Origin: Calditrichia bacterium
GTDB taxonomy: Bacteria > Calditrichota > Calditrichia > JAJRVZ01
NCBI GenBank assembly: GCA_963796965.1
Contig: CAWCNS010000016.1
Coordinates: 206,769 to 270,768 of the forward strand
Reading direction: 5' to 3'
Length of the DNA stretch: 64,000 nucleotides
Positions 13,552 through 48,363 of this stretch are shown here, piece after piece (position 1 is the first letter of the stretch; each line of letters starts with the position of its first letter). The position numbers and the translations under genes are program-made. The notes under the pieces are model-generated. The model was not told the DNA's origin, did no database searches, and saw only the letters and a list, made by a program, of their open reading frames with translations.

Positions 13552-14277
13552 TCAGATATTTAGTGATTTTTGAATATATGCTACATTATCTGTAATGACA
13601 CCATTTACAGAATATTCCAGTACTTTTGTGAGTATTGGCTCTTCATTAACCGTCCAAACATATAACTCTTTATTGTACTTTTTTGCTTTTTTAACCAGAC
13701 TATCATTGACAACTCTAAAATGGGGATGCCAGGCGTCAGTCCAGGTTATTAGATCATAGAAAGTGTGCATCCAGGTCATACGTTGGAATAGATAGCCAGT
13801 TTTGATATTTGGGTTAATAAGTTTTATAATCTGAAGAAGAAATGGATTGAAGCATGAGATCCATACTGAATCCATTAGATCGTGTTTTTTGATTGCATTT
13901 ATGATTTTATGTGCAAATTTAAAATCAAAAAAGTGAATCGTTTTAGCATCGAGGTTTATCGGAACCCGTTTACCAAAATGTTCAAAAAAATCATCCAATG
14001 TTTCAATATATTGCGGGTTTCCTACTCCCAGAGATTGTTTGTATGGATAGGTTCTGAGCTGCTCATACGGTGTCCTACCCACGTAACCTTGCATCTCAAA
14101 CATTCTTTTTAGGGAAAAATCGTGAAATACTACAATCTCACCTGTGCTCGTTTGACGGATATCAATTTCGAGCGCATTTGCACCGGCCACAATGGCCTTT
14201 TCGCAGGCATCAATGGTATTTTCAATCCCTTTGGCGCGATCTCCCCTGTGAGCAACTATTAATGGTTGACTAGTCAC
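13552..14277 (-). CDS. Glycerophosphodiester phosphodiesterase family protein
   Basis: AHRG, ENT, EIDI, VFHD, VWTVN, GVITD. Confidence 0.9.
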   Translation of the reverse strand: MTSQPLIVAHRGDRAKGIENTIDACEKAIVAGANALEIDIRQTSTGEIVVFHDFSLKRMFEMQGYVGRTPYEQLRTYPYKQSLGVGNPQYIETLDDFFEHFGKRVPINLDAKTIHFFDFKFAHKIINAIKKHDLMDSVWISCFNPFLLQIIKLINPNIKTGYLFQRMTWMHTFYDLITWTDAWHPHFRVVNDSLVKKAKKYNKELYVWTVNEEPILTKVLEYSVNGVITDNVAYIQKSLNI

Positions 14278-15391
14278 TTAATATCTTTTCGTAATAATCA
14301 ATATACTTAGGAACAATTATTTCAGGTGAGAATTTGGAGGTGGCAATTTCCATACCCTGCTTACCCATCTCCTTTGCCAATTTATTGTCTGAGAAAATGA
14401 CATCGATGGCTTCGGCAAAGCCTTCAATGTCACCAATATTCACAGTAAAACCTGTCTTGCCATCAAGGTTAACTTCTGGCAGACCGCCGGCATTTGTGGA
14501 GACACATGGAGTACCACAGGCCAGCGCTTCAAGTGCTACAAGTCCAAAACTTTCCGATTCACTCGGTATTAGGGCAATGTCAGCGATAGATAATAATTCT
14601 GAGATATTTTCCTGTTTACCAAGAAAAATAACTTTATCACATAAATTTTCATTTCTACATTGCTCTTCTGTTTTATATCGGTCAGGACCATCGCCAACCA
14701 TCAACATTTTAACTCTATGCTTTTTACTAACTTTTTTAATTATTGGCACGATATCAGTAACCCGTTTGAGTGAGCGAAAATTTGAAATATGAATTAAAAT
14801 CTTTTCATCATCGGAGGCAAATCGTTGACGGATCTCTTTATTCGTCTTAATTGTGCCGAACTCGAATGGAACAAAATTTGGAATAACTTCAATTTCTTTT
14901 TTTGGATTTAAAACTTCAATTGTTTTATTCTTCAAAAATTCAGAAACTGCTGTAACACCTGAACTTTGTTCGATACTGAATTTTGTAATTTTAAAAAATG
15001 AGGGATCCCCGCCTAGTAAAGTTATATCAGTTCCATGAAGAGTTGTTACAAATCTGATGTTTTTATCTTCTAAAATTTGCCTGGCCAGATATGCACTCGT
15101 CGCATGGGGGATAGCATAATGAACATGCATGATATCTAATTTTTGAAATTCAAATACTTCGGCCATCTTAGAAGCCAGGGCGAGGCTATAGGGTGGATAT
15201 TCAAATAAAGGATAATGGATAACTTCAACTTCATGAAAAAATATTTTTGAGGCAAAATTTGTCAGACGATAGGGAAGGGCATAAGAAACAAAATGAACCT
15301 CGTTGCCTCTCTCGGATAATCTTTTCCCAAGTTCAGTCGCAACTACACCACTTCCGCCATAAGTCGGATAACAGGTTATTCCAATTCTCAT
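14270..15391 (-). CDS. bshA: N-acetyl-alpha-D-glucosaminyl L-malate synthase
   Basis: CYPTYGGSGVVATELG, HVHYAIPHA, TTLHGTDIT, HISNFR. Confidence 0.92.
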   Translation of the reverse strand: MRIGITCYPTYGGSGVVATELGKRLSERGNEVHFVSYALPYRLTNFASKIFFHEVEVIHYPLFEYPPYSLALASKMAEVFEFQKLDIMHVHYAIPHATSAYLARQILEDKNIRFVTTLHGTDITLLGGDPSFFKITKFSIEQSSGVTAVSEFLKNKTIEVLNPKKEIEVIPNFVPFEFGTIKTNKEIRQRFASDDEKILIHISNFRSLKRVTDIVPIIKKVSKKHRVKMLMVGDGPDRYKTEEQCRNENLCDKVIFLGKQENISELLSIADIALIPSESESFGLVALEALACGTPCVSTNAGGLPEVNLDGKTGFTVNIGDIEGFAEAIDVIFSDNKLAKEMGKQGMEIATSKFSPEIIVPKYIDYYEKILSD

Positions 15392-16908
15392 GACGAGGTG
15401 GTCATTTCAATTGAGAATTGTTTGACACAGTTACGCCCAGCATGCTTGGCAGCATACAATGCTGTATCTGCCTTATAGATAAGATCTGTTGAGTCTTCTG
15501 CATCGATAGGCAAAGATGCGGTTCCAACACTGACTGAAATCCTGTTCAGAGGTTGTACATCTTCATCAGGGAAGATGGCATCAGCCACATGAGCACGGAT
15601 ACGCTCAGCGAGTATGATGACACCATCGCGTCCGACACTGGGCAGGATGACGGCAAACTCTTCCCCACCATATCGGGCGACGATATCATTTTCACGTACC
15701 GTATCTTTTAAAATATTAGCTAATTGTTTTAAGACTAAATCACCAGCCTGATGCCCAAGGGTATCATTGTAATTTTTAAAATGATCGACATCGAGAATAA
15801 TTAGAGAAACACCTTGTTTATTTCTGGTATGTCTTAGGATCTCTTCTTTAAGTCTCATCTCAAAATAGCGAAAATTATGTAAATCTGTCATACCATCCGT
15901 ATAGGAAAGCTGAATGACTTCGTCATACAATGAAGCATTTGATAATGCTGTCGAAACAATATTATTGATTGTTAATAGAATTTCAAGTTCATTCTTTTGA
16001 TAGGGTTTTTCATTTACCCGCGACCCTAAACATATAAGCGCATCTTCCTGATCCCGGACTGTTGTAATGGGAGAAATCAATTCAATGTTGATTTCCGCCA
16101 AAGCAGAAGTACCCGAGGACTTCAGGACATATTTAGGTAATTTTGTAATAAATTGTGGCGATTGGTTCTTATGCAAATATGAGATGAGTTCGTCACTTTT
16201 TTCAATGGTTAAATCCTCTACATCAGCTTTATAAAGTCCCTTTGAGTTCAGAACAGAGAGACGCTGTTCATTCTTTTTTGCAGGGTATAAAAATACAGCG
16301 CTTTTACAGCTAAATTTTCCGATGAGCGAAAGCAAAGTTGAGTTTATCAGACGATCTACATCAAGAATAGCATGCAATTCGAGAGAAACATCAAATATAT
16401 TTCTGAGGTCATAGATTTTCTTTCTTAATTCTTTATTTTTATCGACAAGATTCTGATTGAGATCATAAATCTGCTTGTTTGCATTTTCAAGCTCGTGGGA
16501 TTCTTGGCGCAGGTTGTCACTTAGTTGTTTGAATCGTAGCGCCGAGTTGATACGTGCAATGAGTTCCTCAAAACTAAACGGTTTAATGATGTAATCATCT
16601 GCACCAACCTCAAGCCCCTGGATGACATCTTTAATCTCACTTTTTGCTGTCAACATCAAGATGGGAATGTATTCATCTAGCCGGCCATTTAGTCGGATTT
16701 CTTTTGCGACTTCAATTCCCGAAATACCTGGCAACATTACATCAAGTAGAATAACATCCGGTTTGGACTGATAATACTTTTTAAGCGCAATTTCACCGCT
16801 CATTGCCTCTTCAATCTCGAAGCCCTGTTCACGCAAAAACTTGCTTAATACCTGTAGCATTTCCTGATGATCATCGACAATTAGGACCCGGAAAGACGTC
16901 TTTTCCAA
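15388..16908 (-). CDS. Response-regulator diguanylate cyclase (REC-coiled coil-GAF-like-GGDEF)
   Basis: N-terminal REC; RxxD I-site (REND) and RYGGEEF active site. Confidence 0.9.
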   Translation of the reverse strand: MEKTSFRVLIVDDHQEMLQVLSKFLREQGFEIEEAMSGEIALKKYYQSKPDVILLDVMLPGISGIEVAKEIRLNGRLDEYIPILMLTAKSEIKDVIQGLEVGADDYIIKPFSFEELIARINSALRFKQLSDNLRQESHELENANKQIYDLNQNLVDKNKELRKKIYDLRNIFDVSLELHAILDVDRLINSTLLSLIGKFSCKSAVFLYPAKKNEQRLSVLNSKGLYKADVEDLTIEKSDELISYLHKNQSPQFITKLPKYVLKSSGTSALAEINIELISPITTVRDQEDALICLGSRVNEKPYQKNELEILLTINNIVSTALSNASLYDEVIQLSYTDGMTDLHNFRYFEMRLKEEILRHTRNKQGVSLIILDVDHFKNYNDTLGHQAGDLVLKQLANILKDTVRENDIVARYGGEEFAVILPSVGRDGVIILAERIRAHVADAIFPDEDVQPLNRISVSVGTASLPIDAEDSTDLIYKADTALYAAKHAGRNCVKQFSIEMTTSS

Positions 16909-17219: not shown

Positions 17220-17663
17220 ATGAAGAAGTACAACAAAATATTTGGTTTTACCTTTTATCTGATTATTGTTCTCGGTATAAGTTTATTTTATGCGATAGCC
17301 TGTAACACAAATTCAACGGAACCGGAAAAGGAAATATCGCTACCGGATAGTAATCTGAATTATATCGAACATATCCAGCCGTTATTAATAACAAAATGTG
17401 GCAGTAGAAATGGTTGCCACGGTAGTTTCGAACCTGCTCGTGGTTTAGATCTGACAGATTACCAGCTTATGATTTCTCATATAGCTGCCGGGAACCAGCA
17501 GTTGATTATCCCAGGTAGTTCCGAGGTGAGTTTTCTATACAATATTCTGCAAGGACAAGTTTTGAATGTTCCAAGAATGCCATTGTATGAACCCAAACTT
17601 GAAGCAAAGTATATTCAGGGTATCAAGCAATGGATTGATGAGGGGGCAGAAGAATTTCCCTAA
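17220..17663 (+). CDS. Lipoprotein with planctomycete-type cytochrome c-like domain
   Basis: Lipobox AIAC, CGSRNGCH, GLDL, RMP, IKQWIDEGA. Confidence 0.65.
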   Translation: MKKYNKIFGFTFYLIIVLGISLFYAIACNTNSTEPEKEISLPDSNLNYIEHIQPLLITKCGSRNGCHGSFEPARGLDLTDYQLMISHIAAGNQQLIIPGSSEVSFLYNILQGQVLNVPRMPLYEPKLEAKYIQGIKQWIDEGAEEFP

Positions 17664-17774
17664 ATCAAAAATGTACAATTATTGCTCACTTTACCATTTT
17701 CTATTTTGATGATTATCATTAGGGGGTATTTGTAAGGCCAATATTAACAATGATTTATGGAAATATATATTTTT

Positions 17775-17790
17775 TGGCACCGTAATTGCA
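17775..17790 (+). promoter_or_regulatory. Sigma-54 promoter (consensus match)
   Basis: TGGCAC-CGTAA-TTGCA. Confidence 0.85.
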
Positions 17791-17800
17791 TTATTTAAAA

Positions 17801-17866
17801 GCGAGCACCTAAATTCCTCTTTTGTTCCTCACCAAAATGCCTCCTCCTGGAGGCATTTTTCTTTTT
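17801..17866 (+). ncRNA. Putative sigma-54-dependent small RNA (~66 nt)
   Basis: Predicted +1 near 17801, CU-rich body with no credible ORF, ends in an intrinsic terminator. Confidence 0.65.
17834..17866 (+). terminator. Rho-independent terminator
   Basis: AAAATGCCTCC-TCCT-GGAGGCATTTT followed by a T-rich tract. Confidence 0.85.
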
Positions 17867-18074
17867 ATCTCATTTATGTTTTGATGATAAATAGATTTTT
17901 TTGCTGTCTCTTGCTGCACATCGTTACCCGTACTCCGAAAAGATGAATTTGAAGTCTGTTTTTGATATGAATTTTTGTATTTTTTAAGTACTTTTAAACC
18001 TGTTCTGAATAGATCTAAATCCTAAATAAAGAACATCGAAATCTCATTTCATTCAGATAGTGTAGGAGAAATTT

Positions 18075-19046
18075 ATGCAATTCCACATACCAGATTCACT
18101 GGGTTTTACAAATGTACCTACTCCGATCGTCAAACTTAATGCCCCGGGTGGATACAACCTGTGGCTAAAAAGAGATGACATGACAGGACTGGAGTTAAGT
18201 GGGAATAAGATACGAAAATTGGATTTTTTGGTTAATGAAGCAATTGAAGACAACGCTGATGGAATTATCACATGTGGTGGCTTACAATCGAACCACTGCC
18301 GTGCTGCAGCCTATTTATCTCAAAAATTGGGGCTCGAATGCATCTTGTATCTTCGTGGTGTCCCTGAGGATCTGGCGACGGGCAATCATTTTCTTAATCT
18401 CCTAACCAATGCTATCATACATTATGTTTCGGCGGAAGAATATCAGGAAATTGATGGCATGATGGAAATGGATTCGAGAAATCAAGCAAAAAGAGGTAAA
18501 AAGTTTTATGTTATCCCGGAAGGTGGATCCAATGCAACAGGAGCCATGGGATATTGTCAGTGTTTTTATGAAATATTAGATCAGATAAAACACCAACAGC
18601 TGCCCGTGGAGGCCATAGCAGTTGCTACGGGGTCGGGAGGTACCCATGCCGGCCTTCTTGCCGGTAAATTTTTAAACAATAGTAAGATAGATATATTCTC
18701 AGTTAATGTTTGCGATGATGCATCATATTTCAGAAAAAAAATCATCTCGATTATTACAGATTTTGACAAAAAGTATAAGACGAATATTGTCCTTGAAGAA
18801 AAAGATATTCATATTATTGATGGATATGTTGGTGGCGGTTATGGTGAGATAGGCAAAGAAGAAGTCGATCTGATAAAAAGAATTATACGACAGGAGGGTA
18901 TCATTCTTGATCCGGTATACACAGCAAAAGCTTATCTTGGTTTAGAACATCAAATGAAAATAAATAATTTAAAATATAGGAATATTCTGTTTATTCATAC
19001 AGGGGGTGTTTTTGGACTATTTCCTTATGCAAAAAATTTTGCTTAA
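18075..19046 (+). CDS. D-cysteine desulfhydrase/ACC deaminase family PLP enzyme
   Basis: KRDD..SGNKIRKL, QSNH, GSGGT, LDPVYTAK, HTGG. Confidence 0.9.
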   Translation: MQFHIPDSLGFTNVPTPIVKLNAPGGYNLWLKRDDMTGLELSGNKIRKLDFLVNEAIEDNADGIITCGGLQSNHCRAAAYLSQKLGLECILYLRGVPEDLATGNHFLNLLTNAIIHYVSAEEYQEIDGMMEMDSRNQAKRGKKFYVIPEGGSNATGAMGYCQCFYEILDQIKHQQLPVEAIAVATGSGGTHAGLLAGKFLNNSKIDIFSVNVCDDASYFRKKIISIITDFDKKYKTNIVLEEKDIHIIDGYVGGGYGEIGKEEVDLIKRIIRQEGIILDPVYTAKAYLGLEHQMKINNLKYRNILFIHTGGVFGLFPYAKNFA

Positions 19047-47908: not shown

Positions 47909-48268
47909 TCAAAGGTTTTTTCTGACCGTTTTTATAGATGCTACAGTGATTGCTAGAAGTTCATCGCATTCTTTTAATAAAATGTCTATGAGTGGATTGG
48001 AAGAAATTTTCATTTCTTTAATGAGTTCAAGCCATAATTGAGATTCATCTGCTTCTTCTTCGACAATACCCATTTTTGATATAAACTCTGCTTTGGACCG
48101 ACCCCGACAAGCTGCTCTGTAATTTGCCGCTATAGATGTTCCAGATCTAAATAGTTGATTTCCAATTAGCCTTCCTTCTCTATTATTAGGCAGAGTGCGA
48201 CAAAACTGAATTATATCTTTAGCAAATCTTTTTGTTCTCTCTCTTAATTCCTTCTCATTCAATACCAA
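47909..48268 (-). CDS. Four helix bundle protein (23S rRNA IVP/Avd-like family)
   Basis: QLFRSGTSIAANYRAA..SKAEFISK..EEADESQLWL. Confidence 0.92.
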   Translation of the reverse strand: MVLNEKELRERTKRFAKDIIQFCRTLPNNREGRLIGNQLFRSGTSIAANYRAACRGRSKAEFISKMGIVEEEADESQLWLELIKEMKISSNPLIDILLKECDELLAITVASIKTVRKNL

Positions 48269-48363
48269 TTCCTCTTACTTTCGAATAATGAATTTAGATT
48301 GTGGGGCATATGTTAGGCATTGCAAAAATTATACCATATACAAGAATTTAAATTCAAGCTCTT

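Follow-up and report, generated by a model that had tools for sequence, protein, structure and literature searches.

The stretch of DNA between a gene for a 147-aa protein and a gene for a PLP-dependent enzyme in a bacterium of the class Calditrichia is very probably the gene of a small regulatory RNA, with its own sigma-54 promoter and its own terminator. What the RNA does can be stated with less confidence: with a probability somewhat above even, we read it as a sigma-54-dependent, Hfq-independent RNA of about 65 nt that acts in trans by covering purine-rich ribosome binding sites (RBSs).

The window, by which we mean the whole 64-kb stretch of DNA that was analysed, is contig C16:206769-270768 of a 6.9 Mb genome (39% G+C, 20 contigs, 91% complete) from an uncultured sediment bacterium. 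Homologous DNA was sought in 41 genomes, namely the window's own (G000) and 40 relatives, two of which bear the RNA and are labelled G006 and G007; metagenome contigs carry labels of the form L0xx. Counts across the class refer to 86 species genomes of Calditrichia, and counts across the family to 10 genomes. For copies and homologs of the RNA we searched with a covariance model built on the small-RNA unit (termed R1). Segment identities are mean pairwise values for the six loci that span the full region, a set that excludes L054, the 5′ end of which is cut.

Table 1. Features of the small-RNA unit and its surroundings, with positions in the window and conservation among six loci
Feature	Position	Strand	Mean pairwise identity (invariant columns)	Remarks
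Two genes beyond the 147-aa gene (BshA; response-regulator/GGDEF)	14270-15391 and 15388-16908	-		No link to the RNA found
Upstream gene, 147-aa protein	17220-17663	+		N-terminus reads like a lipoprotein signal
Last 60 nt of upstream gene		+	0.55 (9/60)	
Candidate enhancer (activator-binding) site, 19-bp block	17672-17690	+	0.83 (13/19)	Proposed from conservation; putative function
Spacer, block to promoter			0.40 (7/81)	
Sigma-54-type promoter, TGGCAC-N5-TTGCA	17775-17790	+	0.79 (11/18)	-24 GG at 17776-17777; -12 GC at 17788-17789
Predicted small RNA, ~62-67 nt	17801-17866	+		Start from promoter geometry, end from terminator T-tract
CU-rich core (31 nt), predicted single-stranded	17803-17833	+	0.99 (30/31)	Two UUCCUC motifs, 17814-17819 and 17825-17830
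Intrinsic terminator: stem, UCCU loop, U-tract	17834-17866	+		Stem 17834-17844 / 17849-17859
Downstream of terminator			0.31 (1/75)	
Downstream gene, PLP-dependent enzyme	18075-19046	+		D-cysteine desulfhydrase / ACC-deaminase-related; TIGR01275 (312 bits), PF00291

Within the promoter, TGGCAC (17775-17780) and TTGCA (17786-17790) flank five further nucleotides (17781-17785), so that the GG and GC doublets lie 10 nt apart, and counting about 12 nt past the GC doublet gives G17801 as the predicted start of transcription. The terminator stem comprises 11 pairs, five of them G-C, around a TCCT loop (17845-17848), and is followed by TCTTTTT (17860-17866). All of the letters on which the original prediction was built, that is the promoter, the two TTCCTC motifs, the 11-bp stem, the TCCT loop and the T-tract, are indeed present, as is the CCTCC that it placed across the terminator loop (17843-17847; another CCTCC lies at 17840-17844), and the next gene, put some 200 nt further on, starts 208 nt past the T-tract. 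The 66-nt RNA folds with an energy of -19 kcal/mol (z = -5.2 against 200 shuffles), with the terminator as its one convincing helix, and the 5′-most 32-33 nt or so are essentially unpaired in the minimum-energy fold. The unit thus has what is expected of a terminator-bounded sRNA gene: a promoter of its own, no ORF, a hairpin with a U-tract, and conservation as a unit.

The last of these properties is the most telling. The single difference in the core among the six loci is one A/G change in G007, and the core of L054 is identical. TGG[CT]A[CT]-N5-TTGC[AT] is kept in all six loci holding the region, with invariant GG and GC doublets and a variable N5; the invariant promoter positions make up the words TTTGG and TTGC among the 18 columns that run from the TTT before TGG through TTGCA. 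In five loci TTGC is 13 nt from the core, and in the sixth 12 nt. The promoter and the CU motifs, the loss of which would have spoken against the original prediction, have thus been retained together. In the terminator eight consensus pairs are kept, one with a compensatory change (U-A in the window, C-G in the other five sequences), and the loops of all loci consist of pyrimidines only and contain UCC. RNAalifold also proposed a helix in the 5′ part, which we did not accept because it is broken without compensation in two sequences. This constancy is to be seen against the divergence of the surroundings: the flanking protein is 47-58% identical in G006 and G007, and the RNA-bearing branches have accumulated 0.25-0.53 changes per site, while the core shows one change. 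In a sediment metagenome, 32-nt unitigs that span exactly 17803-17834 have an elevated depth, which is what sharing of the core by several populations would produce. Contigs from four sediment DNA runs yielded strain variants only, with one further variant of the terminator, and none of the RNA runs searched was found to contain the locus. Linker indels put the mini-ORFs of either strand into different frames from one ortholog to the next, so selection acts on the nucleotides. We also discarded a reading as a small peptide, as the candidates (plus-strand MPPPGG.. and minus-strand MPPGGG..) derive from the terminator palindrome, have no preceding Shine-Dalgarno (SD) sequence, and differ in frame among orthologs. 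Taken together, the comparison argues for selection on every base of the core, on the geometry of the promoter, on the terminator, and on the unit as a whole.

The unit is found in few genomes. Of the 41 searched at the DNA level, seven including the window's own gave some match, and the true homologs besides the latter are those in G006 (85% over 121 nt) and G007 (83% over 90 nt), which represent two other genera. Likewise, a 28-nt core pattern with at most three mismatches occurs in three of the 86 class genomes, and R1 scores 92-102 bits in G000, G006 and G007 and at most 38.7 bits elsewhere in the class. Searching with a 20-nt core word gave two species-genome records, which are again G006 and G007, and nine metagenome loci; five of the latter hold the unit (L052, L053, which is G006, L054, cut at its 5′ end, L056 and L057), and the core-word matches in the other four (L055, L058, L059, L060) are unrelated and due to chance. 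The original prediction had also suggested looking for paralogous promoter-sRNA units; neither BLAST nor R1 finds another copy of this RNA in its own genome, where the single match scores 92.1 bits and the next 23.8 bits. The next-best R1 matches in the class (at most 38.7 bits) are the T-arm/acceptor 3′ ends of tRNA-Lys(UUU) with their terminators; weak matches of L071 (G008), L072 (G001), L075 (G018) and, in the window's own genome, L063 (C5:1061671-1061736) are all such tRNA-Lys 3′ ends, and the tRNA-Lys locus of G008 shares a 17-nt identical run with the RNA of L057. We dropped an origin from tRNA, given that the tRNA-Lys loci of the RNA-bearing genomes lack any such likeness, which is probably a coincidence.

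In each locus that extends far enough, the 147-aa gene lies on one side of the unit and the PLP-enzyme gene on the other. The 147-aa protein matches no Pfam or NCBIfam family; its gene is present in 81 of the 86 class genomes and in all nine other family genomes. In five relatives (G005, G001, G009, G008 and G003) the same PLP-enzyme gene comes after the 147-aa gene with no unit in between, and in unit-less relatives the two genes either almost abut or have an ordinary terminator between them. In a tree of the flanking protein the six unit-less genomes make up one clade (99/97 support), with the six unit-bearing rows forming the rest of the family, so a single gain or a single loss suffices, and the unit is a gene of one subclade of a Calditrichia family. 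Upstream of the 147-aa gene, and divergent from it, are genes for a response-regulator/GGDEF diguanylate cyclase and the bacillithiol glycosyltransferase BshA (TIGR03999, 525 bits).

This arrangement brings up the possibility of a leader acting in cis, where the sigma-54 promoter would serve the PLP-enzyme gene, the terminator would be an attenuator, and a factor bound to the CU repeat would set the level of read-through. In its favour, the unit always lies directly 5′ of the PLP-enzyme gene and on the same strand (six of seven loci reach that far), and the flanking genes of unit-less relatives are adjacent and look co-transcribed, with a gap of about 15 nt in G005. Moreover, the two UUCCUC motifs, 11 nt apart, end 4-6 nt before the stem, where a bound protein could disturb the hairpin. 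However, no antiterminator pairing is predicted or conserved, the DNA from terminator to gene is unconserved (0.31) and varies in length from about 80 to more than 200 nt, and the terminator looks strong and constitutive (11 bp, 5-9 U); nor does any leader or riboswitch of Rfam match. Inspection by eye further revealed a sigma-70-like promoter, TTGAYG-N17-TA[AT][GT]TT, located 20-60 nt past the terminator in four of the seven loci (L050, L051, L054 and L056); the equivalent region of the window (~17884-17915) has the TTGATG word and lacks a good -10. This element is probably the promoter of the PLP-enzyme gene, which suggests that the gene is transcribed on its own and counts against a leader. 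We therefore regard a cis-acting leader as unlikely, though of the alternatives it is the one that we would least readily set aside.

For an RNA acting in trans, the most economical mechanism is occlusion of RBSs, because the CU-rich tract is complementary to sites of the GAGGAA/GGAGG type. The sigma-54 holoenzyme, switched on by an enhancer-binding protein perhaps bound at 17672-17690, would start near 17801, and the intrinsic terminator would end the transcript near 17864; the resulting RNA, about 65 nt long, would have an unpaired, invariant and CU-rich 5′ part of some 33 nt. Without Hfq, the pair of UUCCUC motifs, perhaps aided by the UCC of the terminator loop, would then cover GAGGAA/GGAGG SD regions and block ribosome binding, and the outcome would be the coupling of some signal sensed through sigma-54 to translation. 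Several properties of the host suit such a mechanism. SD use is strong, with GGAG/GAGG/AGGA words peaking more than 10-fold over background at -13 to -9 (counted from the first ATG of 2461 long ORFs), and the 3′ end of the 16S gene is the usual CACCTCCTT. An anti-SD seed is thus available in the form of an unpaired pyrimidine-rich core with two UUCCUC motifs, in a host that uses SD sites. A search with PF17209 gave no match to hfq in the 91%-complete genome; CsrA is present. On these grounds the covering of RBSs in trans is a plausible step.

Searches for particular targets were less rewarding. Ungapped scoring of the core against start regions gave 883 sites with a score of at least 20, compared to 183-504 for eight shuffled cores; the reversed core gave 1007. 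The complementarity to start regions thus reaches 2-5 times the level of mononucleotide shuffles and does not exceed that of the reversed core, and because the reversed core scores as high, it reflects the CU-rich composition and not a specific seed-target pair. The original prediction holds for the unit of promoter, RNA and terminator, which comparison across genera supports, and fails for the specific pairing. The latter was a 10-mer complementary to 48267-48276, at the start of what was called the four-helix-bundle gene, a minus-strand ORF of 119 aa (47909-48268); the complementarity exists, but it is at chance level and carries no weight, as there are 137 diagonals of exact core matches of at least 11 nt in the genome (self included). 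The start regions of the PLP-enzyme, 147-aa and response-regulator/GGDEF genes pair with the core no better than background. RNAduplex was abandoned: for 70-nt start regions taken from a crude gene call, it proposed looped duplexes that are unrealistic.

A similar picture emerges for the two RNA-bearing relatives, where the target searches covered parts of the genomes. Complements of a 17-mer with at most three mismatches number 65 in G006, compared to 61 for a backward control, and 69 in G007, compared to 43. The site common to both lies inside the coding region of RNase R, over codons for K-E-E-F, and was rejected, as was the top-scoring site of the window's own genome, which is also inside a coding region. 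All that G006 and G007 retain in the pta start region is a generic SD, and for the MFS and oxidoreductase candidates either the conserved site or the ortholog is missing. None of these three start-region candidates is therefore a target conserved in G006 and G007, and the searches as a whole yielded no specific or conserved target.

These results bear on a second alternative, namely that the RNA is real and acts as a protein-binding or decoy RNA, the CU repeat of which titrates an RNA-binding protein or mimics the 3′ tail of 16S rRNA. The idea stays alive because 31 consecutive invariant nucleotides exceed the need of a typical seed of 7-12 nt, and it agrees with the 11-nt period at which the CU motif repeats, with the searches of start regions and complements, which gave no specific target, and with a genome in which CsrA is present and hfq was not found. 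A sponge for CsrA can be ruled out, though, because the single-stranded part has no GGA motifs; no candidate for a CU-binding protein was identified, and full conservation would also be possible for a seed with many targets. We consider a decoy role to have a small probability. Much the same small weight attaches to the more particular idea that the RNA mimics the ribosomal anti-SD tail under sigma-54 control, so that it would be a general competitor for strong SD sites and would re-weight the translation of many mRNAs; the core words CACCU, CCUCUUU and CCUCACC resemble the 16S 3′ end.

Occlusion of RBSs by an RNA made from a sigma-54 promoter, the reading we prefer, depends also on the identity of the promoter. 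The strict consensus matches six times in the genome, counting both strands, with about four matches expected from base frequencies, and the looser TGGYAY-N5-TTGCW matches 31 times with about 26 expected. As these counts sit near chance expectation, the promoter match by itself is not significant. Three of the 31 looser matches are within 3 kb of an activator gene, where 0.9 would be expected, and when 121 relaxed promoter-like matches were filtered for non-coding DNA with a terminator within 170 nt, two were left, including this unit.

The sigma-54 machinery itself is in place. The gene rpoN, the absence of which would have been fatal to the original prediction, was found in the window's own genome (PF04552, 199 bits) and in all 10 family genomes. 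It lies about 3 kb to the left of the window (C16:202326-203803; positions 506-1983 of locus L009), where it is read in two frames in this assembly (137 + 358 aa). We take the break to be an assembly indel, and thus an error, because about seven of some 33 genes with PF00158 domains (on C11, C16, C2 and C7) and the RNase R gene rnr (C6:184469-184895) are likewise split into two overlapping frames. The assembly probably contains frequent single-base indels, and apparent pseudogenes in this genome should therefore be distrusted. Activator domains (PF00158) have 47 matches in the genome, about 25 of them full-length; the same search finds no activator gene adjoining the RNA, and the nearest matches on the contig lie outside the window.

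It could be, then, that the small RNA is real but is transcribed by a housekeeping-type sigma factor, and that the conservation of TGG..TTGC reflects something else. Sigma-70-like AT-rich hexamers do overlap the region (for instance TTAACA-16-TATATT at 17744-17771), making a second promoter possible; most orthologs have an A[TA]ACA word and a TAnnnT word just 5′ of TTTTGG, and the sigma-54 consensus shows no genome-wide enrichment. Such hexamers are, however, at chance level (12 found, 10.9 +/- 2.9 in shuffles), and under a TTGGCA/-10 reading the -10 hexamer of the window lacks its final T. Above all, GG and TTGC, canonically spaced around a variable N5, are precisely what has stayed invariant, which is why we find transcription by a housekeeping factor improbable, somewhat more so than a decoy. 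It is scarcely credible that there is no gene at all, with a chance promoter match and a hairpin that merely terminates the upstream mRNA: the strict consensus does occur at chance frequency, and the terminator, 171 nt past the upstream stop codon, surely also ends the upstream mRNA, but this leaves unexplained the invariant 31-nt core, the conserved GG/GC geometry, and why relatives in which the same gene has a different terminator (G009, G001) or lacks one (G005) are missing the whole block.

Further upstream, the conserved 19-bp block at 17672-17690 may be an enhancer, that is, the site where the activator binds. It begins 9 nt past the stop codon of the upstream gene and 103 nt 5′ of the promoter's TGG, and relatives without the RNA lack it. 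The block is unique in the genome, with no exact copies elsewhere, and has 33 look-alikes with at most two mismatches. Two of these, other than the block itself, have a sigma-54-like promoter within 135 nt (C4:734042 and C7:967032), where about 0.06 would be expected; both are some 90-110 nt downstream of the predicted start, unlike the block, which is upstream. Promoter and look-alike are arranged in the same way in a paralog of the C4 unit, and a fourth co-occurrence, on C9, is inside a gene. The link between block look-alikes and sigma-54 promoters looks real, and it does not pinpoint the activator.

Other sigma-54-like promoters were noticed along the way. Those at C4:734172, C4:736720 and C7:967183, all on the minus strand, are followed after about 105-135 nt by a TGTG..A/T-rich..CACA palindrome resembling the block at 17672-17690 and then by genes for secreted proteins; the two genes on C4 are paralogs, one of which has a frame break and a C-terminal tail of the T9SS type. 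At C4:830129 (plus strand) a sigma-54-like TGGTAC-N5-TTGCT leads into an ORF-free stretch of about 150 nt and a strong terminator (-13.5 kcal/mol), and is itself preceded by a repeat of about 20 nt in two direct copies and one inverted. This unit may be another sigma-54-dependent small RNA with enhancer sites of its own.

The RNA belongs to no family that we could find. Searching Rfam 15 against the 64-kb window gave no match above the gathering threshold, in line with the novelty that the original prediction had anticipated; the best match below it was to Phe_leader, at 23.3 bits against a threshold of 55. The lineage had also been described as one of little-known sRNA biology, and this is borne out by Table 1 of a review, where a single annotated sRNA is given for Calditrichaeota (PMC9029176). 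Text searches for Calditrich* together with sRNA returned nothing beyond that review and an insertion-sequence survey, and those for Caldithrix abyssi together with sigma-54 returned no joint paper; a 2025 survey of sigma-54 regulons mentions neither Calditrich* nor sRNA nor non-coding RNA.

Going by that table, Calditrichota have essentially no described regulatory RNAs, and the unit provides a compact hypothesis for them, in which some 200 bp accommodate promoter, 65-nt RNA and terminator. It bears on how a genome with some 25 or more sigma-54 activators might extend regulation to the post-transcriptional level without Hfq. Its reach is narrow (three of the 86 species genomes of the class and a few sediment contigs), and it is ordinary in kind, because base-pairing sRNAs driven by sigma-54 are already known.

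Among the latter, GlmY and GlmZ have overlapping sigma-70 and sigma-54 promoters; both are structured, exceed the present RNA in size, and activate glmS by way of a protein adaptor. The Rfam comparison shows no sequence likeness between them and the RNA described here. They are reported as Enterobacteriaceae sRNAs with sigma-54 promoters (PMC3045617), and CrcZ is listed as a further sRNA of the sigma-54-driven kind.

Another parallel is found in the Qrr sRNAs, which require Hfq. Like them, the present RNA is short, bounded by a terminator and preceded by a sigma-54 promoter, and the Qrr sRNAs are described as repressing translation by pairing; unlike them, it is single-copy, has no adjacent activator gene and no likeness in Rfam, and belongs to another phylum, in a genome where hfq was not found. 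Qrr1-5 of the Vibrionaceae are described as needing LuxO/sigma-54 and as repressing the translation of LuxR (bioRxiv 10.1101/2021.07.01.450815). For Desulfovibrio vulgaris Hildenborough, four ncRNAs are given in 36 sigma-54 regulons, with the remark that ncRNA regulators tend toward free-living species (PMC4641369). That bacterium is likewise a free-living anaerobe with many activators, and its ncRNAs are presented as the only or main regulon members of sigma-54 activators. They are listed mostly by an adjacent gene, and two of them by their own activator gene, whereas here no activator gene is adjacent, and the likeness is one of description only.

In its proposed way of working the RNA resembles the RsaE/RoxS-type sRNAs of Hfq-poor bacteria, which have exposed C- or CU-rich motifs, repeated two to three times, that pair with SD regions without Hfq (AbcR-type RNAs were named for such seeds originally). 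The two share the use of pyrimidine motifs; they differ in promoter type and in the placement of the motifs, which are mainly in hairpin loops there and in an unpaired 5′ tract here, and Rfam gives no match between them. The RNA thus appears to belong to no known family, and it would work much as the known anti-SD sRNAs do.
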